Below, in pieces: positions 1 to 41,366 of a DNA stretch of 41,366 nucleotides. Origin of the DNA: a virus; the IMG/VR virus record IMGVR_UViG_3300044994_000093, one strand, 5' to 3'. Position numbers and translations under genes: made by a program. Under the pieces are notes generated by a model. It did no database searches, was not told where the DNA came from, and saw nothing but the letters and a program-made list of their open reading frames with translations. Position 1 is the stretch's first letter. Each line of letters begins with the position of its first letter.

Positions 1-127
1 CGACGTGAGCCAGCGTCATAGGGCAACGGGTCATCGATACGCGCCCGGCGATCGGTAAACAGCGAGACGATCACTGCCGAATGCAGGTCCTGGCCGGTGG
101 CCAGATCAGCGTTCTCCAGATAGAAAT
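1..127. repeat. Terminal direct repeat. Bases 1-127 are identical to 41240-41366, so the window is a linearised circular or terminally redundant genome with 41239 bp of unique sequence.
   Basis: Read directly: cgacgtgagccagcgtcatagg...gttctccagatagaaat is present at both ends with a constant offset of 41239. Confidence 0.95.
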
Positions 128-4670: not shown

Positions 4671-5046
4671 GCTTCCTGCGCCTTATTGGCTTCGATACAG
4701 GTATTGGCCCAGAACGTTAACTGGCCAGCTGTGAGTTTTTCGATGTCGCGAATTCCGCCGCCACACTGGCAAGCGAGTCTCCAGGCAATAACCGCCCAAT
4801 CTTCAGGGAATCGGGCAAAAAAGGTGTCACGGCGCTTTCGAGCTTGTCGAAGTCATCCAGCATCATTTCACCCAGTGCGCCTGGTGTGATTCCGGCCAGT
4901 GTACCAACCAAGGCATAAATGCGTTCTTCGGCGTTGGTTAGATGCGCCGTCTCGCGCATGTGCTTGACTCGGGGTTCTTTGATCTGAACCGTGGTCGTCA
5001 TCTGCCCGTCAATCTCAACGGGATTTTTTAACTCAACGGTGATCAT
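4640..5046 (-). CDS. Predicted -1 frameshift fusion product of the tail assembly chaperone
   Basis: After a slip at 4816..4822 the -1 frame stays open for 63 codons (ARFPEDWAVIAWRLACQCGGGIRDIEKLTAGQLTFWANTCIEANKAQEAW...) and ends at TAG 4640..4642, inside the tape measure start region. Confidence 0.55.
4717..5046 (-). CDS. Tail assembly chaperone (Mu gp41-like), zero-frame product
   Basis: 109 aa between the tube and tape measure genes. Contains a T_TTT_TTG slippery site. Confidence 0.75.
   Translation of the reverse strand: MITVELKNPVEIDGQMTTTVQIKEPRVKHMRETAHLTNAEERIYALVGTLAGITPGALGEMMLDDFDKLESAVTPFLPDSLKIGRLLPGDSLASVAAEFATSKNSQLAS
4816..4822 (-). promoter_or_regulatory. Slippery heptanucleotide T_TTT_TTG (X_XXY_YYZ) for programmed -1 frameshifting
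   Basis: Minus-strand codons read CC[T TTT TTG] in the chaperone zero frame. Confidence 0.55.
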
Positions 5047-5408
5047 GCCTGAGCCACGCTTTCTTGGATTTCAACACCTTCCCAGCGCACGTTGAACTTG
5101 CCCTCAACCGCATCCAGCTCAATGGCTGTAACCACCCAGGCATTCCGGAGGACGTAACGGGTGCCGTCGATGAGTTCGGCGGTAATTGTCGCATCCTTCT
5201 GGTCTTTGATTTTTTGAACCGAGATGCCCTTACGTGTTAGCTCTGCCTCAATAAATGGGGGCTTGGGCATCTCTTTATACCCGTGGACGGCATCAACACC
5301 CACAATGGTCTCTCGCTCCAGGTCAGAGACGCCAACGGTGACCGAGCCGCCCAGGGCTACAAGCTCACCGTCGATTTTTAGAAATACTTTTCCCGCAATT
5401 GCGCCCAT
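5043..5408 (-). CDS. Tail tube protein (Mu gp40 / M-like)
   Basis: 121 aa directly downstream of the sheath gene. Sequence MGAIAGKVFLKIDGELVALGG...; ATGA-type overlap with the chaperone gene. Confidence 0.75.
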   Translation of the reverse strand: MGAIAGKVFLKIDGELVALGGSVTVGVSDLERETIVGVDAVHGYKEMPKPPFIEAELTRKGISVQKIKDQKDATITAELIDGTRYVLRNAWVVTAIELDAVEGKFNVRWEGVEIQESVAQA

Positions 5409-5426: not shown

Positions 5427-6581
5427 TTACAATCTGAACTGGATCTGGGTGGCGATGATCCGCAGCTGGTTGACGAGATCCGGCGGAAGCAGGATATTGA
5501 CCCGGTTCGGGTCACTGCCGTCACGCTCCACCACCAGGTCGTCCTTGAACTGGTCGACGTTTTCCACCAGGCCGTTCTCTTCCCAGAGCCCGAACAACGC
5601 GATGCACTCGTCCCGGATATCGCGAGGTGTGACCAAGGCCTGACCAACACCCACGCGGGTGCCGTCGTCGGCAATTTTGTATCGTGGAAACTTGAGCTTC
5701 ATCCGAGTCCGGAACGATTGAGACAAGTAGGCCAGGGTTGCCATCGTCTCTGTGTCAAGGTAGGACGGATCTGGTGCGCTTGCCACGTTGAGCTGGTAGG
5801 TCGTCGCTGCCCGCTCGATGCGTACGGTACCATCGCGATCCACACTGAATGTGGCGATGCCGTCGGTGAGCAGAATATTTCGTTCACTCAACAGGAACCG
5901 GCTCGTCAATGGTGGCGCGAGAACGCCTTTAAGATCCAGCGTCTGCAACGGCCTGGCCGGGTCGATGGTCAGGTAGTAGGCCGCCACCGCCGCGTACGCC
6001 GCTGCCCATTCATAGGGGGGTGTCGGGCTATCGTTGTAACCCATAATCGTCAAGTGCTGGCTGTTGTGCGAATTGCCCAGGGTGGTTAAATTCGCCACCG
6101 TGGCCCGGTGCGCCGAAAAAGCATGTGACTCCAGCAATACCAACGGCCCCCAGCGCAGCGTTAACTCGGTTTTCAACGCTGACAGGTTGGTGCTGTCGGT
6201 GTAAGGGTTGACGATGAAATCATAGATTTCCTCGGGCATGGCATCGATTGCGGTTTGCAGTGTCGGGTTGGTCGTTCCGGAAGCCATCGCCGTGATGGTC
6301 AGCGTCACGCCCGCCGGTGTTTTCTCGCCGCCCAGGCTGCCCCGGTAATTGGTGCGGATGTCGATATCATTGCCCCACAGACCCTTGTGCCTGCAAGCGA
6401 TGGTCACGGTGGCCGTATCAACAGTAGAGGTCACTGGCAAGTCGGCTGCCGCGTTGATGGCTGCATTGATGGCGGTCGCAATACTGCTGGCGGTATCGGC
6501 TGTGGTCACGCCAATGGTGAGACGCTGGCCAGCAATATAGAGATTAATCGTACCGGCCTCGGTCGGTGTGCCACTCACCAC
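5427..6581 (-). CDS. Tail sheath protein, C-terminal 384-aa segment. The frame is open upstream as far as the TAG at 6633.
   Basis: First start codon is GTG 6581. The 17 codons upstream (AIALDDNGSGVAATGTI) are in the same frame as the N-terminal fragment. Confidence 0.85.
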   Translation of the reverse strand: MVSGTPTEAGTINLYIAGQRLTIGVTTADTASSIATAINAAINAAADLPVTSTVDTATVTIACRHKGLWGNDIDIRTNYRGSLGGEKTPAGVTLTITAMASGTTNPTLQTAIDAMPEEIYDFIVNPYTDSTNLSALKTELTLRWGPLVLLESHAFSAHRATVANLTTLGNSHNSQHLTIMGYNDSPTPPYEWAAAYAAVAAYYLTIDPARPLQTLDLKGVLAPPLTSRFLLSERNILLTDGIATFSVDRDGTVRIERAATTYQLNVASAPDPSYLDTETMATLAYLSQSFRTRMKLKFPRYKIADDGTRVGVGQALVTPRDIRDECIALFGLWEENGLVENVDQFKDDLVVERDGSDPNRVNILLPPDLVNQLRIIATQIQFRL

Positions 6582-6632
6582 AATCGTACCGGTGGCGGCA
6601 ACGCCGGAGCCGTTGTCGTCCAGAGCAATGGC

Positions 6633-6902
6633 CTAGGACTCGGTGTAGTTGTTATTGAGTTTTAAGGCCTTAAACATATTGGCCAGCTGGGAGCCACGGC
6701 CAAAATAGGTGACGGCCTGCTCGTAGCTGGTCACCAGTGTTGGAACGCCAGCGGCTACAGTACCGGCAGATAAGCGCTGCCCGAACACCATCAGACGGGT
6801 GGCAAATCGAATCAGCCCCTTGTTGGCTTTCGTGTTGTCAATTTCGACGTAAACACCAGGAACCCGAATATTCGACGGGATCGTATTAAATGAAACGGCC
6901 AC
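6633..6902 (-). CDS. Tail sheath protein, N-terminal 89-aa segment ending at an in-frame TAG
   Basis: MAVSFNTIPSNIRVPGVYVEIDN is the typical contractile-sheath N-terminus. GTG start overlaps the upstream TAG by 1 nt. Confidence 0.85.
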   Translation of the reverse strand: MAVSFNTIPSNIRVPGVYVEIDNTKANKGLIRFATRLMVFGQRLSAGTVAAGVPTLVTSYEQAVTYFGRGSQLANMFKALKLNNNYTES

Positions 6903-7087
6903 TACTTATCGCCTCCCTTGTTTTTCTGAGGCGAGGATTCTGCCTCGGATGCCAATACCACATCCCCATCAGCCAGCCGACGCCGCCAATAGGTCGTATC
7001 CGTCACGGCAGCGCCTTCCGGCGGCAGAATCCGCAACGTGTGTGGGTCACGGATGACCAGACTCGGGTGTGCAGGCTTTACATACAC
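6902..7087 (-). CDS. Small conserved tail-module protein (Mu gp38 / DUF2635-like)
   Basis: 61 aa immediately upstream of the sheath gene. MYVKPAHPSLVIRDPHTLRILPPEG resembles the recalled DUF2635 pattern. Confidence 0.6.
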   Translation of the reverse strand: MYVKPAHPSLVIRDPHTLRILPPEGAAVTDTTYWRRRLADGDVVLASEAESSPQKNKGGDK

Positions 7088-18443: not shown

Positions 18444-19040
18444 TCAGAGCCTTGAACGAATTGCGTCATCGAGGGAGAGCTTGAACAGGCGCTCAAACCG
18501 CTCGTCCACGACTTTCTGAACCGTACGCTCCAATTCGAACCGGGCTTTCACTTGGGTCGTTGGACGCAGGGCATAGAGTAGCTGGATGGGTGTTCTGGCT
18601 TTTGTCACCCGCTGGTAAATGCCCAGGCGGCCTTTGACCGTGGCGATGAAGGGCTGACGCGGCCCGGACTTGTCCAGGATTCGCCGTGGCCGGTTGGACT
18701 TGGTGACGATATCCCGCTTGTTGCGTTTAATCTTCACCGGGATAGCCACGTGTCTACCCTTGGGGCGCTTCGTCCCGCCTTTGTCCTGACGCTCCATAAA
18801 TTCGTCCACACTGCCCACCTTGGCGGCCTGATTGGCCTTGGTCGCCTTCTCGATGCGGATGCCCTTGCTCACATAGTTGTTCCGGATGATGAACCGCCTG
18901 GGCAGCTCCCTACGAATTGCCTTCTGGGCATCCGAGGCCGTCCAGGTCAACGCTCGCGCATTGGCAAATGGAAGCTGGTCCTTGGCCAGCTGAGACAAGC
19001 CTTTGATGGCTTTGGTGGTATCGACGCTGATTGATATCAC
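18444..19040 (-). CDS. Hypothetical basic protein (HK97 gp10-like / morphogenesis-like N-terminus, uncertain)
   Basis: 198 aa ORF, coupled to its neighbours. The resemblance is by eye only. Confidence 0.5.
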   Translation of the reverse strand: MISISVDTTKAIKGLSQLAKDQLPFANARALTWTASDAQKAIRRELPRRFIIRNNYVSKGIRIEKATKANQAAKVGSVDEFMERQDKGGTKRPKGRHVAIPVKIKRNKRDIVTKSNRPRRILDKSGPRQPFIATVKGRLGIYQRVTKARTPIQLLYALRPTTQVKARFELERTVQKVVDERFERLFKLSLDDAIRSRL

Positions 19041-19528
19041 AGCTTTTTATCCTCCATCAGGGTTTCAATTTCCTGGATTACCTCGGTGACGCCGTCGAGA
19101 ATCAGTTCCAGGCGTGTGATGTGACCGGTGCGCATGTTGATAACCTGGGCGATTTTCCGAATCAGCGAGGCCGGTGCCTGCCCGTTGAGCGTGAGCAACT
19201 CCAGATACCGTCGCTCCCGCCGGGTGATGGGTGGCACCATCGGGCGGATGTCCCGTGAGTACAGGCCGTAGAGGTCATTCGGCGTGATGCCAAACAGATG
19301 GCACAGCTTAGACACCTGCTGTGAGTTCGGCTCGAAGCGGCCTTCGTGCCCTTCCATCCACCGCCGGATCGTGCCTTCACCCACGCCAATCATTTGAGCC
19401 ACCTGCACCGGTGTTCGTCCACTGGTGCCGATGAAGTAGGTCAGTCGTTTGTGAAACGCGCTCTGGGGCGTGATGCTCTCGACCGGGTACACCAGCTGCA
19501 TCTGCCTCTCGTTCATCTCTGCTGCCAT
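19037..19528 (-). CDS. XRE-type HTH regulator
   Basis: 163 aa. HTH segment RTPVQVAQMIGVGEGTIRRWMEG. Confidence 0.6.
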   Translation of the reverse strand: MAAEMNERQMQLVYPVESITPQSAFHKRLTYFIGTSGRTPVQVAQMIGVGEGTIRRWMEGHEGRFEPNSQQVSKLCHLFGITPNDLYGLYSRDIRPMVPPITRRERRYLELLTLNGQAPASLIRKIAQVINMRTGHITRLELILDGVTEVIQEIETLMEDKKL

Positions 19529-19543
19529 TATTCTCGTTTCCCA

Positions 19544-20515
19544 CTATCCCCGGATGATTTCCAATAGCCCGGGCTGGCATCCGGCCCCGTCCCAGTTTTC
19601 GCCGCTTTCGTCACTGAGGTAAAAAAGATCCCCGCTGGATTCGCCAGGCGCTCGTGGGTTGATAGCCCGGAACTCGACCTGGTGCTTGCTAAAAACCCGC
19701 CCGTCGGTAATGCAGCGGACCTGGCCGCCTTCGTCCAAGTGGTCGAGAATCTGCTTCCAGCGTGGCGTGGTGGCTGGCTTACTCACGGTCTGGCCTCTGC
19801 GTTGGCCGTCGGGCCGGTAGTCCTGGATGCGCCCCCAGAATGCCGACTCGAACCACTTGGGCGCTGACTTGCCGGAAGAAGTCGCCGCGTCCACGGTTTG
19901 CTGCCAGCATTCGCGAAGCACCAGATCGCCCAGGTTGGGATACTGAGCCTTGGCTTTGCCGAGCACGCGCCTTACCGTGCCGCCTGCCCAGTGCAGGTTG
20001 GTCAGATTCGGGTTTTTTGAGGCCACCAGGTAGTCGACGGCATCGGAAACAAATTTTTCATTTTCGGCATCGTCTGCGCACGCGGCACGCGTTAGCGTGC
20101 TTTCTCTCTCTGTTTCTAACTCTGTCTCTAACTCTGTATCTTGGGCCGGAGTCGCTACGGATTCACTCCGGAGTTTTTTATTTTGCTTTTTGGTGTGTTC
20201 GTCCCTGTATTCAACCATCTTAGGGCAATCGATGCGTATCAAATTCTGACGGTTTTCTGTGAAAGAAATTTTAAAAAGTTTCAAGTTTTCGCAGAAAAGT
20301 AGGAAGTTTTTGATCTTTTTTTCAGAAATTCTGAGGATTCTTTTCCAACTTGAGACCGGAAGTTCGACATGGGTTCGGTCGGTTTCGTCCATCTGTTCGC
20401 CGATGGTTTCCAGGATTAAAAAATAAATGCCATAGCCCTCTGGCCCGAATTCATCCAGGATTATCGCCAACTTTTCGTCTCTATTGGCCGTTGATATGTG
20501 CTTGAACCAACGCAT
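19544..20515 (-). CDS. Replisome organiser / replication initiation protein candidate (DUF4373-like N-terminal domain)
   Basis: 323 aa. N-terminus MRWFKHISTANRDEKLAIILDEFGPEGYGIYFLILE is the recalled Lin1244/Lin1753-type pattern. The acidic linker is encoded by tandem repeats. Confidence 0.6.
   Translation of the reverse strand: MRWFKHISTANRDEKLAIILDEFGPEGYGIYFLILETIGEQMDETDRTHVELPVSSWKRILRISEKKIKNFLLFCENLKLFKISFTENRQNLIRIDCPKMVEYRDEHTKKQNKKLRSESVATPAQDTELETELETERESTLTRAACADDAENEKFVSDAVDYLVASKNPNLTNLHWAGGTVRRVLGKAKAQYPNLGDLVLRECWQQTVDAATSSGKSAPKWFESAFWGRIQDYRPDGQRRGQTVSKPATTPRWKQILDHLDEGGQVRCITDGRVFSKHQVEFRAINPRAPGESSGDLFYLSDESGENWDGAGCQPGLLEIIRG
20108..20143. repeat. Three tandem 12-bp repeats (CTCTGTTTCTAA / CTCTGTCTCTAA / CTCTGTATCTTG), followed by a 7-bp inverted repeat (20146..20152 / 20165..20171) and a T-rich tract
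   Basis: Read directly. Lies in the linker of the replisome organiser gene and encodes TELETELETE. Confidence 0.7.
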
Positions 20516-28636: not shown

Positions 28637-28709
28637 CGCCACCCGCAGGATTCGAACCTGCAACCATCGGCTTTGGAGGCCGCTGCGCTCCCGATTGCGC
28701 CAGGGTGAC
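28637..28709 (-). tRNA. trnW: tRNA-Trp (anticodon CCA)
   Basis: Hand-folded 73-nt cloverleaf: acceptor GTCACCC/GGGTGGC, D arm GCGC-AATCGGGA-GCGC, anticodon arm GCGGC-CTCCAAA-GCCGA (G27:A43 mismatch), variable loop TGGTT, T arm GCAGG-TTCGAAT-CCTGC, discriminator G. CCA is not encoded. Confidence 0.8.
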
Positions 28710-30967: not shown

Positions 30968-31243
30968 ATGATTAGCTTAGGGAAGGCTAACACTATGGAT
31001 AATGAGCCAAAATCATTCAAAGAACGATGGAAACGTTCTACTCGCAGCCAAAAGAATGGGTATATTGCTCTGGGTATATCGAGCGCCTTGATAATCGGTA
31101 TGCAATTTACGTTTTTAGGCGGTCTGCCTTGGTGGGTTTACATTCTCTTCTGGCTGATGCTTGCTGGCGGTCTGGCAGGTGCCTTTAATCAGGGTTCTGC
31201 TAATCAAAATCTGGCCGATATGAACAAGTCAGATGAAAAATAG
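30968..31243 (+). CDS. Small two-TM membrane protein
   Basis: TM segments YIALGISSALIIGMQFTFLGGLPWWVYILFWLMLAGGLAGAF. ATG 30995 has the better SD. Overlaps the integrase start by 11 nt. Confidence 0.5.
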   Translation: MISLGKANTMDNEPKSFKERWKRSTRSQKNGYIALGISSALIIGMQFTFLGGLPWWVYILFWLMLAGGLAGAFNQGSANQNLADMNKSDEK

Positions 31244-32792
31244 CAGCTGTTTTCTTTATGCCCGCGTCTCCTCCGACAAGCAAGAGGACGAAGGCTACAG
31301 CATTCCGGCCCAGCTCCGTATGCTCCAGGAGTATGCTGACCGCCAAGGCTTCACAGTGACCGAGGAGTTCATCGACGTTGAAACCGCGAAGCAACCAGGC
31401 CGGTCTGCCTTCAATCGGATGGTTAAGGCACTAAAAGCCAAAAACGCCCCTAAAATCCTCCTAGTGGAGAAAACCGACCGTCTCACCCGTAATTACCATG
31501 ATGAACTAACCATCAACAGCCTTGTGCAGGAACAAGGTGTGTCCGTCCACTACGTCAAAGAAGGCGAGATCATCTGCCAAAACGCCAGCTCCCACACGAA
31601 GCTGATACACAACATCAAAGTGGCCCTCGCCCAGCACTATGTGGACAACCTCTCCGAGGAAATCAAGAAAGGCAAGCGAGAAAAGGCCAAGCAAGGCGGA
31701 TGGTCGAGTAAGGCTCCGCTCGGTTATCAAATGGTCAAGGGTGAGCTCCAGGTGGATCCGGAAGGTGCCGCTTTTGTAAAGAAAGCATTCAGCCTGTTTG
31801 CCTCTGGAATTTACTCACTGCGGGCCTGTGCCGATAAACTCTTCGAATCCGGATTGATTTATAAGCCTGGCATCCCGGTCATCCAAGCCGCCACGCTGCA
31901 GAAAATACTAACGAATCGTCTCTACCTGGGCGAGGTTCACAACAACGGAGAGCGTTACCCAGGCAGGCATCAGCCGCTGGTGGATGAAATCACATTTCAG
32001 CAGGCTCAGAGAGCACTCAGAAAAGACAATAAACCGCTCAGTTACACGGCAAACACCTTTGTGTTCCGTGGCATCGTCAACTGTGGTGAATGTGGCTCGC
32101 CGCTCGTTGGAGAGCTAAAAAAAGGCGGAAAATACACCTATTATCGGTGTGTCACGAAGGCGCACCGCGGGGAATGCTCCCAGGGTTACATCAACGAAAT
32201 CAAGATGTCAGAAGCGGTCAAGCAAACGTTTCTCCGGATTCGCTTTCCGGAACACGTCAAAGATGCCATAGGCCTTGCAGTGGCTGAATCCGACAAAATC
32301 AAACAACGACAGGACGAGCACCAGGCCAGCGAGATTCGCAGAAAACTAACCAACGCCAAAAGCGCAATTCAGCAGGCATACAGAGACCGCACGGCCGGGA
32401 TAATCGACGCTGAATTCTTTCAGGAGCTGGCCGCAGAGTACAAAGAAAAAATCCAAAACTTAGAAATTGAGTTACAGGCCATCGGGAATGCGGATATCGA
32501 TTATTACGAGACCGTTCAAATGTTGTTCGAACTCGGCGAAACCTTGTATTCAAGCTGGATTGCAGGCACTGTGGAAGAAAACGCGTTACTTTTGAAATTG
32601 GTGTGTTCGAACTTTTCTGTCAAAGACGGAAACCCGCTCATTGAGCTGAAAGAACCGTTCCGAACATTGGCCAATACTGGCACTTGTAAACTTTGGTGGA
32701 GCAATAGAGAAGTAGCTCGAACGCTCCTGATACCTCTTCTTACGCAACACTCTGTTACAATTAGAACAATGCATCAAGCCTTGTGTGCCTAA
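31233..32792 (+). CDS. Large serine recombinase (phage integrase)
   Basis: 519 aa. Resolvase catalytic N-terminus FLYARVSSDKQ, recombinase domain, Cys-rich zinc ribbon (CGECGSP...YYRC), and a coiled-coil C-terminus. Confidence 0.85.
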   Translation: MKNSSCFLYARVSSDKQEDEGYSIPAQLRMLQEYADRQGFTVTEEFIDVETAKQPGRSAFNRMVKALKAKNAPKILLVEKTDRLTRNYHDELTINSLVQEQGVSVHYVKEGEIICQNASSHTKLIHNIKVALAQHYVDNLSEEIKKGKREKAKQGGWSSKAPLGYQMVKGELQVDPEGAAFVKKAFSLFASGIYSLRACADKLFESGLIYKPGIPVIQAATLQKILTNRLYLGEVHNNGERYPGRHQPLVDEITFQQAQRALRKDNKPLSYTANTFVFRGIVNCGECGSPLVGELKKGGKYTYYRCVTKAHRGECSQGYINEIKMSEAVKQTFLRIRFPEHVKDAIGLAVAESDKIKQRQDEHQASEIRRKLTNAKSAIQQAYRDRTAGIIDAEFFQELAAEYKEKIQNLEIELQAIGNADIDYYETVQMLFELGETLYSSWIAGTVEENALLLKLVCSNFSVKDGNPLIELKEPFRTLANTGTCKLWWSNREVARTLLIPLLTQHSVTIRTMHQALCA

Positions 32793-32793
32793 A

Positions 32794-33276
32794 ATGCGCG
32801 TTCTGATTCCCATTTTAGCTTTTTTCCTACCTTCAGTATGCTTTGCAGAACCCGTTTGCAAGGTTCACGACGGCGACACGTTTAGGACTTGTTCCGGAAC
32901 CAGCGTCCGGATGAACGGCATCGATGCCCCAGAGCTCAAACAGCCCTATGGATACGTGGCCAGGGATGCTCTCCGGCGTATGATTCTCTATAAAGACGTC
33001 CAGCTCACCTGTAAGGGGAAATCATTTAAAAGACGAGTTTGCACGGCTACTTTGACCGGTCATGATATTGGTGAGGCGATGGTTCAGCAGGGCTATGCCT
33101 TCGATGCTACCCAGTTCAGCAAGGGACGCTACAAAACGAATGAGCGATCAGCACAAGCCAGACGAGTCGGACTTTGGGTGCAGCCCGATGGGGGCATCCG
33201 GCCATGGGACTGGCGCCGAGCACAAAGACAACGATACGCTGACCGTCGAGCAAGCAAGGCAATTGCTGGCGATTGA
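32794..33276 (+). CDS. Secreted staphylococcal-nuclease-like (thermonuclease) protein
   Basis: Signal peptide MRVLIPILAFFLPSVCFA. SNase motifs VHDGDTF and RMNGIDAPE. Confidence 0.75.
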   Translation: MRVLIPILAFFLPSVCFAEPVCKVHDGDTFRTCSGTSVRMNGIDAPELKQPYGYVARDALRRMILYKDVQLTCKGKSFKRRVCTATLTGHDIGEAMVQQGYAFDATQFSKGRYKTNERSAQARRVGLWVQPDGGIRPWDWRRAQRQRYADRRASKAIAGD

Positions 33277-33496
33277 AGCGCCAAAAAGATTTGATATAGA
33301 TACTTCAAAGCCTTATTCAGTCCTGATTCGTTCATCTGGCCAGGGTGACTATAGGTTCGTCATCGATATCGAAGGCTATACCAGCTACAGCATTCATCGG
33401 GGTGGCGTCTGGCGAAATATTTCCAGGTCTGAGCGTGATGTTTTCAGAAAAGCCCTGGGCGGATTGCTTCAGAAAACGTTCAAACCCAAATCCTAG
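33263..33496 (+). CDS. Possible small protein (~77 aa) overlapping the nuclease 3' end; start uncertain (TTG 33263)
   Basis: The frame stays open to 33496 with protein-like sequence (SKPYSVLIRSSGQGDYRFVIDIEGYTSYSIHRGGVWRNISRSERDVFRKAL). There is no ATG after the nuclease stop. Confidence 0.3.
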   Translation: MLAIEAPKRFDIDTSKPYSVLIRSSGQGDYRFVIDIEGYTSYSIHRGGVWRNISRSERDVFRKALGGLLQKTFKPKS

Positions 33497-33545
33497 CGGC
33501 GAAACGAACTGCCCAAAAAAAAATTTAACAAATCGCCGATTATCG

Positions 33546-33598
33546 GGGTTGCGCGTCACCCGCATTCCGGAGGCCCCGGAAGGACCCAATTTTTTTTG
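33546..33598 (+). terminator. Putative intrinsic terminator (possibly bidirectional) between the nuclease block and higBA
   Basis: GC-rich branched hairpin (inner stem TTCCGG-AGGCC-CCGGAA, outer GGGTT/GGACC) followed by AATTTTTTTT. An A9 run at 33515..33523 lies on the other side. Confidence 0.4.
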
Positions 33599-33611
33599 AA
33601 GGGCTGAATCC

Positions 33612-33670
33612 TACACATAGTGTAACATTGGGGCCTTAAGGCTTTAAAACTGTATAAGTGTATGATACAG
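33612..33670 (+). promoter_or_regulatory. higBA promoter region with two palindromes (candidate HigA operators)
   Basis: TACAC-ATA-GTGTA (33612..33624) and CTGTAT-9 nt-ATACAG (33650..33670), just upstream of the higB ATG. Confidence 0.45.
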
Positions 33671-33680
33671 TGATAACATC

Positions 33681-33971
33681 ATGATTAAGACATTCGCTAA
33701 CAAGCTCGCCGAAAATCTGTTTCACGGCAGATCATCCAAGGAAACCCGCAAGTTTCCGCATGAGTTGCATCGTCGGTCAGAGCTTTTATTGGATGCCTTA
33801 AACGCTGCCACCGAACTGCAGGACATGGCTTCACCGCCGGGCAACCGACTGGAGAAGCTATCGGGAGAGCTGCAGGACAAGTACAGCGTGCGAATCAATG
33901 ATCAATGGCGGATTGTCTTCCGCTTTGAGAATGGAAACGCCCATGAGGTAGAAATACTCGACTATCACTAG
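33681..33971 (+). CDS. higB: HigB toxin (RelE/ParE superfamily, plasmid maintenance system killer)
   Basis: 96 aa. PPGNRLEKLSGELQDKYSVRINDQWRIVFRFENGNAHEVEILDYH is the recalled HigB signature. Confidence 0.85.
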   Translation: MIKTFANKLAENLFHGRSSKETRKFPHELHRRSELLLDALNAATELQDMASPPGNRLEKLSGELQDKYSVRINDQWRIVFRFENGNAHEVEILDYH

Positions 33972-34038
33972 CAAAACCGACTAGCACCAGGCGCAATTAA
34001 GGTGAAGGATTGGACCAGTAACTAGGAGTTCGTGAGAC

Positions 34039-34326
34039 ATGCGCCCGAAAGAAAGGAAACCAGCTCATCCTGGAGAAATTTTGGAAGAGTTGTATATAAA
34101 GCCCCTTGGTTTAAGCCAAGGACAGATTGCAGCGCACCTTGGTATTCAACGTGGACAATTAAATAATATAATCCACGGCAAACAGGGTGTTACTCCGCGT
34201 CTTGCTCTGCGATTAGCAGACGCGTTTGGTACCACACCAGAGTTTTGGATGAATCTACAATCCAATTGTGAGCTCTGGGAAGCAGCTAGAAAGCATGAAA
34301 GAATCACCGCTTTAGTAGCAGTCTAG
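34039..34326 (+). CDS. higA: HigA antitoxin (XRE HTH)
   Basis: 95 aa. HPGEILEELYIKPLGLSQGQIAAHLGIQRGQLNNIIHGKQGVTPRLALRLADAFGTTPEFWMNLQ. Confidence 0.85.
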   Translation: MRPKERKPAHPGEILEELYIKPLGLSQGQIAAHLGIQRGQLNNIIHGKQGVTPRLALRLADAFGTTPEFWMNLQSNCELWEAARKHERITALVAV

Positions 34327-35183
34327 CCCCACTGGCTGTACGAGCCGAGCTTGCCCTGGCGGAAGAGGGCGCGCTTGGTGTCTCGGTCGATGTTGAAGTC
34401 GGCGGTATCCACGTTCTTAACTGGTGAGGCCAGGTCATACAACCGTGGGTCGATGACCTTGAGCTTGGCGAACCTTGCCAGGGCCATGCGATGACGGGTG
34501 GCTGCCGTCACCTCGTAGGCATAGAGCGCCCGCTTGAGCAAACCATTCGGCGTGGTGTCACCGCCTCGGTTGACTGTGCCAGGGAAGCCAAGGACGATGG
34601 CGGTCACGTCGGCGTCAGCAGGCAGAAAACTCAATGGTGGATGCTCACCAAGGCCGCCATCCATCCAGCGGCGTGAATCGGCTACCAGGCCAGGCAGGGC
34701 CATCGAACGTGTGAGAACCGTGCCAAAGCCCAGGTCCGTGAATGCGTTTTCCACCCATACGGTTTTGACGGTGGCCGATTCAATCACGCCCTCTGGTTTA
34801 CGATGGCAGTAGAGCACCTGGGCGTTGTCTTCCGCATCCCAGGCATTGATGACCAGGCCGTTGACCGGTTCAAGCTGAAGGCTGTCCAGGTAGGCCGCTA
34901 CCCGGTTGAGCTCTACTGGCTTGGCCAGAATGCCAAGCTCTCGAATTTTCCATGGAATCCAGCCGCTCAACAGGCCTTTGAAATCAGACCGCTCGAAAAA
35001 ACTGGCCATCTCCAAAGGGCTCCAGTGATTGGCAGCCAGGGCCGCTACCAGGGCGCCAAATGAATCGCCAGTGATGATGTCATAGCGATGCGGGTGATAG
35101 TGCCCCATCATCTCGCCTGCGCGTAACACGCCAGCCAGGGCGATGCCTCGAACGCCGCCACCGGCGATGGAAAGTGCTTTCAT
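34323..35183 (-). CDS. Patatin-like phospholipase
   Basis: 286 aa from ATG 35183 (ATGA overlap with the endolysin stop). Oxyanion motif GGGVRG, nucleophile GDSFG, catalytic Asp in MDGGLGEH. No signal peptide or TM segment. The upstream part of the track ORF is Arg-rich junk. Confidence 0.8.
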   Translation of the reverse strand: MKALSIAGGGVRGIALAGVLRAGEMMGHYHPHRYDIITGDSFGALVAALAANHWSPLEMASFFERSDFKGLLSGWIPWKIRELGILAKPVELNRVAAYLDSLQLEPVNGLVINAWDAEDNAQVLYCHRKPEGVIESATVKTVWVENAFTDLGFGTVLTRSMALPGLVADSRRWMDGGLGEHPPLSFLPADADVTAIVLGFPGTVNRGGDTTPNGLLKRALYAYEVTAATRHRMALARFAKLKVIDPRLYDLASPVKNVDTADFNIDRDTKRALFRQGKLGSYSQWG

Positions 35184-35611
35184 GGATACGTCCACCGTGC
35201 TCTCTTGGGCCTCGTGTCGATATGGCACCAGGTGTTGGCCTTGCCGTAGCCTCCGGGCCAATTGTCCAGGTCGAGCGTTTTCTGCTCTCTGGCTGAACAA
35301 TCGAAATCGACTGCCGTGGCCAGCAGGTGCTCGCTTTTTTCGCCGCCGCCCGCCTGGGCGTTGGCCACCGGGCAAGAATAGCCGCGATTCGGAACCACCC
35401 GCCTGCCGAGTTTGGAATTAAAGCGTTCCAGGTGCCCGGCCAGGGTTTTGAGGCGCTCTGTGTAGAGTTTTTGCTTGTCGACCGGCAGACACCCAAAGTA
35501 GTCCCAGGAAAGCTGGTCAAACACCCGTCTGCCGTTGATGAGTCGCACAAAAAAGTGTTGCAGCTGGTACTGGGGGCTCAGGTGGTCCGTCAGTTTATAA
35601 ATATGGGGCAT
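35180..35611 (-). CDS. Endolysin, peptidase M15 family (zinc D-Ala-D-Ala carboxypeptidase / L-Ala-D-Glu peptidase type)
   Basis: 143 aa from ATG 35611 (AGGAGG lies 5 nt upstream). Motifs RGYSCPVANAQAGGGEKSEHLLATAVDF and WCHIDTRP. Confidence 0.8.
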   Translation of the reverse strand: MPHIYKLTDHLSPQYQLQHFFVRLINGRRVFDQLSWDYFGCLPVDKQKLYTERLKTLAGHLERFNSKLGRRVVPNRGYSCPVANAQAGGGEKSEHLLATAVDFDCSAREQKTLDLDNWPGGYGKANTWCHIDTRPKRARWTYP

Positions 35612-35624
35612 GGCTGCCTCCTGA

Positions 35625-37055
35625 TTAGGTGAGTGCAGTGACACAGGCCGCGGCGTTGGTTGCGCCGATGGCGACCCCGGCGGCCTTGGGATGAATCTTG
35701 TCGGTCTCGTAGTACGTCGTGTTGGCCGGGTCGTCCCCGTCATCGAAATACTCGTTATTGCCCCACTGGGACAGCGCATTGATGCCATAGGCCGATGGAT
35801 TGGCCTCAACAGCGGCGATTAAGTCCCGGATTTTGGCTGTAATGGCAACCGATGTCCGGGCAATCGGCAGCGAGTACCCCAGAGGCATCCCGTGGTGGTA
35901 ACTTTTCCATTGGGCTGCCAACGCGGTAAGGCGCTCTAAGGTGGTGGCCACCGTCTGGCCATTGGGCAATAAACCGCCAGAGGTATCGGTGGTAAGGTCA
36001 TTGGTGCCAGCGTGAAGCAACCCGATGACGTCGAGTCGTGAGGATTCCGGCACATAAAGATCCGTGGCGATTCTGGCCCAGTGGGTAGTGCGTAGCGTTT
36101 CCAAGGTGGCGCCATCCACTCCCAGGCTGTGAACGTAATCGGTGGCATTACCGCCCAGCTCGACGGCCAGCTTGGCATAGAGCTTGTCGGCTTCGGCCAC
36201 GATGTTGCTGTTGAAGCTGATGGAATCACCGGTTAGCAACACCAGGCGATTGAGCAGTACGCCAGGACGAATGTTCTGGTCGATGTTCTGGGTGAGCCCC
36301 CACATTTGCGCATCCGTCCAAACACCTGGTCCGATTAGTAGCGTGTCAAAATGCCCTAAAAAGAAATTACCAGCGCCTAAATTAGAACCTAAAAGGCTAT
36401 TTTGAGCACGAGAATTGGTGATAGTGGTTCCGCTGCCAACAGCTGACCCAAAGTTCTCAATAGTGCCCACGCGATAGCCGCCTCGATAGAGACGAGCGCG
36501 TCGGTTAATATAATCGACGGTACCGCCGTAAACCTGCCATTTGCTGGCATCGTTTAAATAGCCTGCTGTTGCGGTAGACGTTGTATCCGCGTCGAGTTTT
36601 CTACCTTGGACTTTGACGCCGCTAGCGGTAAGGTTCAAACCGGCCCGGTTGATACTACCCGATGCGGCGGTACTCATTGACCATATGCAACGCTCTGCAG
36701 AAAAATTATCTGATTTTACAAGCGCCAAGACAGAATAACCATTAGCACCATTGAGTAAATCCCTGATAGACGTATCCCCGAACAAATGGCGAGCGCCATC
36801 GAGGTATAACGCTTGTCGGCTGTCTACGCTTTCAGGTAACGGCATTCTGGCATCTGTCATCGTTTCAAAGTAACTAGCCGTGTTTCGACTTGTCCAACGC
36901 TGTACTCGTCCGCCATTAGCTTCTTTAGGCGTTATGCCTTGGGTTGAGTCCATCCAGATAAGCCCAGGAATTGAGAGCGGATCGACAGGACCCAGGCCAG
37001 ACTGGCCCATAAACCCGGATATTCCGGACATTCCCGATAACCCGCTGAGTCCCAT
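35625..37055 (-). CDS. Tail-associated protein with a collagen-like Gly-X-Y N-terminus, a LamG / ConA-like lectin domain, and a C-terminal SGNH (GDSL) hydrolase
   Basis: N-terminus has 7 G-X-Y triplets (GLSGLSGMSGISGFMGQSGLG). SGNH blocks LLTGDSIS, HAGTNDL and DKIHP. The LamG call is by eye only. Confidence 0.65.
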   Translation of the reverse strand: MGLSGLSGMSGISGFMGQSGLGPVDPLSIPGLIWMDSTQGITPKEANGGRVQRWTSRNTASYFETMTDARMPLPESVDSRQALYLDGARHLFGDTSIRDLLNGANGYSVLALVKSDNFSAERCIWSMSTAASGSINRAGLNLTASGVKVQGRKLDADTTSTATAGYLNDASKWQVYGGTVDYINRRARLYRGGYRVGTIENFGSAVGSGTTITNSRAQNSLLGSNLGAGNFFLGHFDTLLIGPGVWTDAQMWGLTQNIDQNIRPGVLLNRLVLLTGDSISFNSNIVAEADKLYAKLAVELGGNATDYVHSLGVDGATLETLRTTHWARIATDLYVPESSRLDVIGLLHAGTNDLTTDTSGGLLPNGQTVATTLERLTALAAQWKSYHHGMPLGYSLPIARTSVAITAKIRDLIAAVEANPSAYGINALSQWGNNEYFDDGDDPANTTYYETDKIHPKAAGVAIGATNAAACVTALT

Positions 37056-40936: not shown

Positions 40937-41366
40937 TAACGAGTCACCTCCACAACATCCGCCTGGATCTGCTGCCAGGGGTAATCAAAGCGAAACTCCT
41001 CGCGGCCGGTGGGCTTGTCGATGCCGACGAAAATAGCCATGACACCCATGCGCGGATAGGTCACCTCCACATCCACACGGGATGCAACACCGTCCTCGAT
41101 GAGCCATCGCAAGGCTTCCCGGCAATATTCCTGAGCCCTGGCCAGCGTGGCCTGGGTCTGTTTTTCCCGGCTCAACAGCCAGAGTCGGCTGCCGATTCGG
41201 TCACCTTGAATGGGCTCAAAGGTATCGCCCCACCATCCCCGACGTGAGCCAGCGTCATAGGGCAACGGGTCATCGATACGCGCCCGGCGATCGGTAAACA
41301 GCGAGACGATCACTGCCGAATGCAGGTCCTGGCCGGTGGCCAGATCAGCGTTCTCCAGATAGAAAT
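40936..41366 (-). CDS. Baseplate protein Mu gp46-like, 3' part. The true start is at 170, across the circular junction; the M at 41313 in the ORF track is internal.
   Basis: The frame is open to the window end and continues in phase into 1..170. Confidence 0.8.
   Translation of the reverse strand, partial: FYLENADLATGQDLHSAVIVSLFTDRRARIDDPLPYDAGSRRGWWGDTFEPIQGDRIGSRLWLLSREKQTQATLARAQEYCREALRWLIEDGVASRVDVEVTYPRMGVMAIFVGIDKPTGREEFRFDYPWQQIQADVVEVTR
41240..41366. repeat. Second copy of the 127-bp terminal direct repeat
   Basis: Identical to 1..127. Confidence 0.95.

Follow-up and report, generated by a model that had tools for sequence, protein, structure and literature searches.

The locus described here raises a simple question: why is the tail sheath gene of a phage interrupted by an in-frame stop codon? 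The stop could be an error in the assembly, it could be decoded as an amino acid, or it could be a plain mutation. The DNA studied is the window, the whole 41,366-nucleotide stretch of IMG/VR virus record IMGVR_UViG_3300044994_000093.

The answer favoured here, with good confidence, is that the stop is a genuine and very recent TGG to TAG nonsense polymorphism in the single-copy sheath gene of a temperate phage, and that the TGG allele is still present in the community. On this reading the stop is a commonplace knockout, with no novel way of coding behind it. It is a spontaneous amber mutation, a counterpart in nature of the sheath-gene ambers of classical phage genetics.

The sheath gene and its surroundings

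The features that matter for the argument are the following.

5427..6902, minus strand: Mu-type contractile tail sheath gene (from translation, Pfam, alignment with Mu gp39, and homologues)
6633..6635, minus strand: in-frame amber TAG, codon 90; the polymorphic base is plus-strand 6634, T here and C (TGG, Trp) elsewhere
6633..6902, minus strand: N-terminal fragment ORF of 89 codons, the predicted product of the TAG allele (from the ORF list)
5427..6632, minus strand: rest of the sheath frame, 401 codons, with what is left of domain I, then domains II and III and the C-arm
6902..7087, minus strand: DUF2635 gene, upstream of the sheath (Pfam PF10948, Logan gene call)
5043..5408, minus strand: tail tube gene, intact, directly downstream of the sheath (PF10618, Tail_tube)
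31233..32792, plus strand: large serine recombinase (integrase), 519 aa (PF00239, PF07508, PF13408)

On the minus strand, the frame between 6902 and 5427 contains just one stop before its end, the TAG at 6633..6635. It consists of 491 codons and a TAA stop (5427..5429), and is open except at codon 90. An earlier note on this DNA, made without database searches, had reported that an amber codon splits the sheath gene at this place, and this is confirmed. The resulting ORFs are 89 and 384 amino acids long; in the second of these (5427..6581), gene callers begin at an internal GTG (6579..6581). The start codon of the sheath is GTG (6900..6902), not ATG. In the sequence TAGTG it shares bases with the TAG that ends the DUF2635 gene upstream, an arrangement that suggests translational coupling.

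The joined protein matches Phage_sheath_1 (PF04984; 2.4e-23, 83 bits) and Phage_sheath_1C (PF17482; 6.3e-19, 68 bits), both above cut-off. The beta-sandwich domain Phage_sheath_domII (PF17481) scores 29 bits, just under its cut-off of 31.4 bits. Against the sheath protein gp39 of phage Mu (PDB 9khy), residues 3-490 align with 4-494 at E = 7e-114. Apart from the break in the TAG allele, the gene belongs in every respect to the Mu gpL/gp39 sheath family. What the allele in the window lacks, given the TAG at codon 90, is an unbroken ORF of about 490 codons.

A tryptic peptide across this codon would read LNNNYTES-X-AIALDDNGSGVAATGTIVVSGTPTEAGTINLYIAGQR, where X is the residue at codon 90. The 17 codons 3' of the TAG (AIALDDNGSGVAATGTI) still closely match the family consensus, which means that there is no secondary decay of the frame.

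The gene order around the sheath is DUF2635, sheath, Tail_tube, TAC_7, TMP_3, DNA_circ_N, GpP-like, Gp45, GP46, Baseplate_J and Gp48. The sheath sits in a contractile-tail module, with tube, chaperone, tape measure and Mu-type baseplate genes. The earlier note held that every other structural gene is intact, and no further split gene is apparent. Just one more same-frame pair on the minus strand has a TAG between its members, 19544..20515 and 19037..19528. It was weighed as another split gene, broken at the 19544 TAG, and rejected because the two ORFs belong to different families.

The ends of the window repeat 127 nt, which makes the circular unit 41,239 bp long. On this circular map, Mu-type tail and capsid genes are combined with a lambda-type (GpA) terminase. 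Also encoded are a HigB/HigA pair, RecT and a YqaJ-type exonuclease. The GC content of the genome is 54%. Judging by the serine recombinase and HigBA, the phage is temperate.

Homologues and the ancestral codon

A search of 5.8 billion proteins gave 120 listed matches. Just one of these is a fragment, namely P0001, the 384-aa piece from the window itself. The remaining 119 (P0002 to P0120) are 484-503 aa long, have 99-100% query coverage and are unbroken across the site; the closest among the matches listed is P0002, at 68% identity. The sheaths in phage records, with identities up to 52%, are unsplit as well.

At the DNA level, 80 prophage loci from very diverse bacterial genomes were compared, and in-frame sheath stops occur in none of them. 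It had been considered that related phages might naturally encode the sheath as two genes, split at the same position. Given that the homologues are all single genes of about 490 aa, a naturally split sheath is ruled out: no homologue, among those listed or in the 80 loci, is broken here.

The column aligned with the TAG holds Trp in 40 of 48 aligned homologues and Tyr in 4. Mu gp39 has W91 there, and Y, T, V, H, F, M, I, E and K also occur in some homologues. The aligned codon is TGG in 62 of the 80 prophage loci. From these alignments the ancestral codon is expected to be TGG (Trp90), one transition away from TAG. TGG was among the one-substitution precursors that had been proposed from the letters alone, and it is both the codon for the residue common in this column and the alternative allele found in other libraries.

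In an AlphaFold2 model of P0002 (mean pLDDT 87.7), residue 90 lies in a confidently predicted strand, 88-94 (block pLDDT 92-95), right after helix 72-83, the counterpart of the helix that contacts the tube in Mu.

The change from TGG to TAG is a G>A transition on the coding strand, or C>T on the plus strand. C>T is the change expected from cytosine deamination, and heat speeds deamination. Only TGG and CAG lead to TAG by a transition, and the phage has 139 TGG and 313 CAG codons. Of all possible substitutions in its coding sequence 3.7% create a stop, and this is 4.6% for GC>AT transitions. A nonsense SNP is therefore not a rare class of mutation.

Decoding of the amber codon

A stop codon inside a gene need not be the end of a protein, and phages that read TAG as sense do exist. 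In such phages, in-frame stops are found in 26-71% of genes, and reading TAG as sense raises coding density by more than 10% (bioRxiv 10.1101/2021.08.26.457843). Genuine TAG stops are few, GC content is low, and suppressor tRNAs are often present. In-frame stops are concentrated in late structural genes (same source).

Here, a set of 61 greedy ORFs ends 24 times in TGA, 20 times in TAA and 17 times in TAG (28%). A single ORF among about 61 has an in-frame TAG. Reading TAG as sense takes coding density from 94.1% (code 11) to 93.1%; code 4 likewise brings no gain. The terminators that had been listed earlier as genuine TAG stops (3003, 8680, 6902, 34323 and 34324) are correct, and both stop usage and coding density agree with the earlier judgement that genome-wide TAG reassignment is unlikely. 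Reassignment of the code 15 type was rejected, failing on all counts: a single gene, TAG as a common terminator, no density gain and no tRNA with a CUA anticodon.

As to that last point, the earlier note was right that no CUA-anticodon tRNA is to be found; neither ARAGORN nor Rfam finds such a suppressor in the phage genome. The genome does hold one tRNA: a tRNA-Trp(CCA) at 28637..28709 on the minus strand, scoring 59 bits in Rfam. No library, be it TAG or TGG, differs in this tRNA or in its CCA anticodon. With G at position 24, the D-arm is free of a Hirsh-type change. A Hirsh-type suppressor tRNA decodes UGA.

The RNA around the stop was also looked at. The base 3' of the TAG is G. The 131 nt downstream fold with z = -1.5, and 17 of 200 shuffles fold equally well; signals for readthrough in bacteria are poorly defined. 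Programmed readthrough was rejected on the comparative data, in which neither the 80 loci nor the 119 listed homologues have a stop at this site. A restart at GTG 6581, which would make a two-piece sheath, was rejected as well. It loses the conserved residues 90-106, and no homologue is organised in this way. In the model of P0002, these residues are strand 88-94 and part of strand 101-110.

Alleles in public libraries

The phage was found in 11 public runs, from hot-spring and microbial-mat metagenomes. Ten of these fall into five pairs, alike in size and nearly so in record count. Each pair is evidently one data set with two deposits, so that six distinct libraries remain. Alleles were called from assembled contigs, which drop minority variants, so the calls below are the consensus per library and not frequencies.

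X1 (=X4): TAG; contig depth 8.5; 16.5 kb with 0 mismatches to the window
X2 (=X3): TAG; contig depth 18.1; no mismatch to the window over the 21 kb compared
X7 (=X8): TGG (plus-strand 6634 T>C); 542-nt contig, depth 3.67; sole difference in the contig
X9 (=X10): TGG, the same change at 6634; 158-nt contig, depth 4.7; sole difference in the contig
X5 (=X6) and X11: codon 90 lies outside contig coverage

The two libraries with a TAG consensus are precisely those with the greatest phage depth. The TGG allele is seen in two short contigs of low depth, yet these come from separate libraries and carry the identical change. In X7 and X9 the frame is uninterrupted at codon 90, in contigs that do not span the whole gene.

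Over positions 1-40000 of the window, compared with four libraries, there are only 3 contig SNPs: 6634 (in X7 and X9), 21896 (in X9 only, depth 2.3) and 34090 (in X5 only, depth 2.4). Position 6634 is the only difference that recurs in more than one library. The phage population is almost clonal. Since there is no other divergence between the alleles, and the frame downstream is undecayed, the mutation must be very recent.

The exact 33-mer around the codon, with an N at the variable base, has no match in IMG/VR, in JGI metagenome contigs or in GTDB genomes. This means that the phage is known only from these hot-spring and mat libraries. Near-identical DNA is likewise absent from INPHARED phage records and E. 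coli genomes, and a search for papers citing the run accessions found none. RNA-seq runs were sought too, and none is listed.

An independent Logan assembly of one run (X2) gave a contig of 41,269 nt that wraps with a 30-nt overlap. This circular contig begins at different points in the two deposits of the same data. The contigs contain no host junctions or attB, and the X2 genome closes as a circle. The phage DNA in X2 is thus mostly non-integrated. Two loose ends, at 33641 and 33671, were considered as an att site and turned out to be the diverged higBA-like promoter region of another element.

Interpretation

Translation of the TAG allele would end after 89 residues. By homology, the fragment would keep the N-arm and the beginning of domain I with its tube-contact helix. 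What follows in domain I would be missing, as would domains II and III and the C-arm that is needed for the sheath 'handshake'. In Mu gp39, this handshake consists of the N-arm, the two-stranded sheet of domain I and a neighbouring subunit's C-arm, which together hold the sheath, while helix 72-86 of domain I touches the tube (PMC11915804). The place of residue 90 in a core strand of the modelled homologue points to loss of function. With the TAG allele no sheath would be expected to polymerise, and genomes with TAG only should give non-infectious particles.

How could such an allele persist? As a prophage, it could be inherited with its host, by way of the serine integrase, at no cost. A prophage with a broken sheath, once induced, may still excise, replicate, package its DNA and lyse cells, and such induction would add large numbers of circular or packaged phage genomes to a bulk metagenome. 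Co-resident TGG genomes could also supply sheath in trans. The high share of TAG in two libraries would then reflect drift, hitch-hiking or an induction burst, and not a benefit.

For a dead-end mutant, the mostly non-integrated state of the DNA in X2, where TAG is the majority, comes as something of a surprise. It would be explained by a burst of induction of the defective prophage, or by complementation.

Four other explanations have to be weighed against a recent nonsense polymorphism. That TGG is present everywhere and that TAG is a sequencing or assembly artefact is highly improbable. It is true that other libraries read TGG, and that all allele calls come from contigs. But TAG was assembled in two libraries, at 8.5x and 18x, and by two assemblers, one giving the window with its 127-nt end overlap and the other the Logan contig with its 30-nt overlap. 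An error specific to the sequence context should also strike the TGG libraries, where the flanks are identical. The stop is therefore real. A sense codon in the reads had earlier been named as a sign of consensus error; on the contigs, TGG is a second allele, next to a TAG found in two libraries. Programmed decoding, be it reassignment of TAG as in code 15, programmed readthrough or a natural two-piece sheath, has a probability close to negligible. An in-frame TAG in a late structural gene recalls recoded phages (bioRxiv 10.1101/2021.08.26.457843), but there in-frame stops affect 26-71% of genes and here one of about 61 ORFs, in a genome where TAG ends 28% of ORFs, coding density does not gain and no CUA tRNA is encoded. 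The stop is also missing from all homologues examined and from part of the phage's own population, and a restart at GTG 6581 would drop conserved residues. Of the explanations that the earlier note had put forward without choosing between them, a real amber mutation as a population variant is the one supported, and a sequencing error has become very unlikely.

The other two accept the mutation and ask if the allele is functional after all. In one, an amber suppressor tRNA of the host, or unusually leaky termination at UAG, yields enough full-length sheath, and the phage is a natural suppressor-dependent variant. This is unlikely, though several observations are in line with it. TAG is the majority in the two libraries of highest phage depth, and a closed circle without host junctions is found there, as expected of replicating or packaged DNA. 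The column of codon 90 tolerates several residues, so that several insertions might work. The undecayed downstream frame also fits, but is equally explained by a very recent mutation in a near-clonal background. The phage itself has no suppressor tRNA, an efficient suppressor would extend the 17 phage ORFs that end in TAG, and neither the G after the stop nor the RNA downstream, which lacks special structure (z = -1.5), favours readthrough. In the other, TAG genomes are 'cheaters' or hitch-hikers, packaged with sheath made by TGG genomes that co-infect the cell or are co-resident in it. For a structural protein that diffuses, as the sheath does, amber-mutant genetics leads one to expect complementation in trans, and both alleles occur at the same site in an otherwise identical background. 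But no library shows both alleles in its contigs (contigs do drop minority variants), and a nonsense allele has no obvious replication advantage. As a separate explanation this is very unlikely; it is more a mode of persistence for the recent nonsense polymorphism. Given the TAG consensus at the highest depth and the X2 circle without a junction, a host suppressor and regular complementation both stay alive at low probability. It is improbable that the amber is a naturally maintained conditional allele, by a host suppressor tRNA or by systematic rescue from co-resident TGG genomes. If it were, virion production would depend on host genotype or co-infection, and the TAG majority where the phage is most abundant and non-integrated would be explained. 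More remote is the idea that the phage's own tRNA-Trp helps to decode UAG at a former Trp codon. No feature that would support this was seen in the tRNA, the anticodon of which is plain CCA. The coincidence of a Trp codon and a tRNA-Trp is explained by TGG being one of the two transition routes to amber.

Use of the annotation

For annotation, the reading as a recent nonsense polymorphism means that the 89-aa and 384-aa ORFs are one sheath gene, disrupted by a nonsense mutation. The genome is best flagged as a probably tail-defective variant and not used as the reference of its lineage; the intact allele has a C at plus-strand 6634.

The case also has a use as a method. Comparison between libraries can settle what a lone in-frame stop in the genome of a metagenomic phage is, and such a stop is not in itself evidence of alternative coding. 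A mutation of the lethal class is found here at majority frequency in a natural population of temperate phage, which fits weak purging via lysogeny or complementation. No new question is raised by this, unless host suppression is shown.

Comparison with known systems

Amber mutations in sheath genes are not new. Laboratory amber mutants are known in gene 18 of T4 and gene L of Mu. The phenotype to be expected is heads, and baseplate-tube structures without sheath, with rescue by suppressor hosts or by complementation. The allele described here is likewise a single UAG inside the sheath gene. In contrast to the laboratory mutants, it arose and spread in a hot-spring community, with neither mutagenesis nor suppressor selection, and is known from sequence.

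Phages recoded to code 15 (bioRxiv 10.1101/2021.08.26.457843; PMC9523058; PMC7886860) share with this one the in-frame TAG in a late structural gene, and a host that presumably uses the standard code. They differ in several ways: the present genome, with a GC content of 54%, has a single in-frame TAG, often uses TAG as a terminator and encodes no suppressor tRNA, and the stop is polymorphic. Known recoding of TAG in phages is also to Gln and not to Trp (bioRxiv 10.1101/2021.08.26.457843).

Phage Mu offers a comparison for the gene itself. Its gp39 (PDB 9KHY/9KI1/9LJ8; PMC11915804) is of the same family and colinear, with a Trp (W91) at the aligned position. The neighbourhood matches as well: DUF2635, sheath, tube, chaperone and tape measure, followed by baseplate genes of the Mu gp44-48 type. 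The sheaths of Mu-group phages share about 44% identity with the one here (tblastn to SfMu). Elsewhere the genome is unlike Mu, with a GpA-type terminase, a serine integrase and RecT/YqaJ, and no transposase was seen in it. A further difference from gp39 is that the sheath gene is broken in the TAG allele.

Defective or cryptic prophages, finally, also derive from temperate phages, with an essential virion gene knocked out, and can be inherited with the host. Here there is one lesion and no further decay, the genome assembles into a free circle, and the intact allele is still in circulation. The TAG allele is possibly the very first step of prophage decay, if it is decay at all.

Genome unit and sequence variants

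The features discussed here are as follows, with strands where they apply.

1..127 and 41240..41366: terminal direct repeat of 127 nt
18444..19040, minus strand: gpZ-like minor tail or tail-completion gene (PHROG 1924, 2e-31; Pfam Minor_tail_Z)
28637..28709, minus strand: tRNA-Trp, anticodon CCA, full-length (Rfam, 59 bits)
31233..35375: accessory cluster next to the serine integrase
33681..33971: higB
35625..37055: GDSL-lipase-like ORF, close to the tail-fibre genes

The repeat at the ends of the window is an assembler overlap, and the true unit is a circle of 41,239 bp. This is confirmed by the Logan assembly, where a contig of 41,269 nt wraps around with an overlap of 30 nt, and does so in a different rotation in the two deposits of the same data.

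Besides the polymorphism at 6634, only two contig-level SNPs are found over 40 kb (window 1-40000, in four libraries). These are 21896 G>T in metagenome run X9 (depth 2.3) and 34090 T>G in run X5 (depth 2.4). Each occurs in a single contig of low depth, so both may be errors.

The transfer RNA

The tRNA-Trp is the sole tRNA of the phage genome. It lies in the early region, flanked by the YqaJ-like exonuclease gene on one side and an ORF of 97 aa on the other. The discriminator base is G73, the CCA end is not encoded, and the sequence is invariant across all libraries. A search of IMG/VR for this tRNA returned no exact match.

Since tryptophan has only one codon, compensation for codon usage does not account for the presence of this tRNA. 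The tRNA might instead offset depletion or cleavage of the host tRNA.

Accessory and tail genes

The gpZ-like gene is found among regulatory, replication and methyltransferase genes, with around 10 kb separating it from the other genes of the tail module.

The accessory cluster encodes a HigB-like toxin paired with an HTH antitoxin, together with a patatin-like phospholipase and an M15 peptidase. The stop codon of higA (34324..34326, plus strand) overlaps that of the convergent patatin gene (34323..34325, minus strand).

Upstream of higB, a stretch of 31 nt (33641..33671) holds the imperfect palindrome CTGTAT...ATACAG, and is also present in a contig of run X7. The flanks of the two copies have diverged yet are still recognisably similar. 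The X7 contig looks like a second operator or promoter of the higBA type, elsewhere in the metagenome, rather than an att site.

Within the GDSL-lipase-like ORF, read depth over 36182..36977 is roughly double that of the neighbouring sequence in X5, and is also elevated in X7 and X9. At both edges, contigs from these three runs and from X11 diverge into unrelated sequence. The stretch is therefore common to another element of the community, and probably represents a mosaic module for tail fibres or host recognition.
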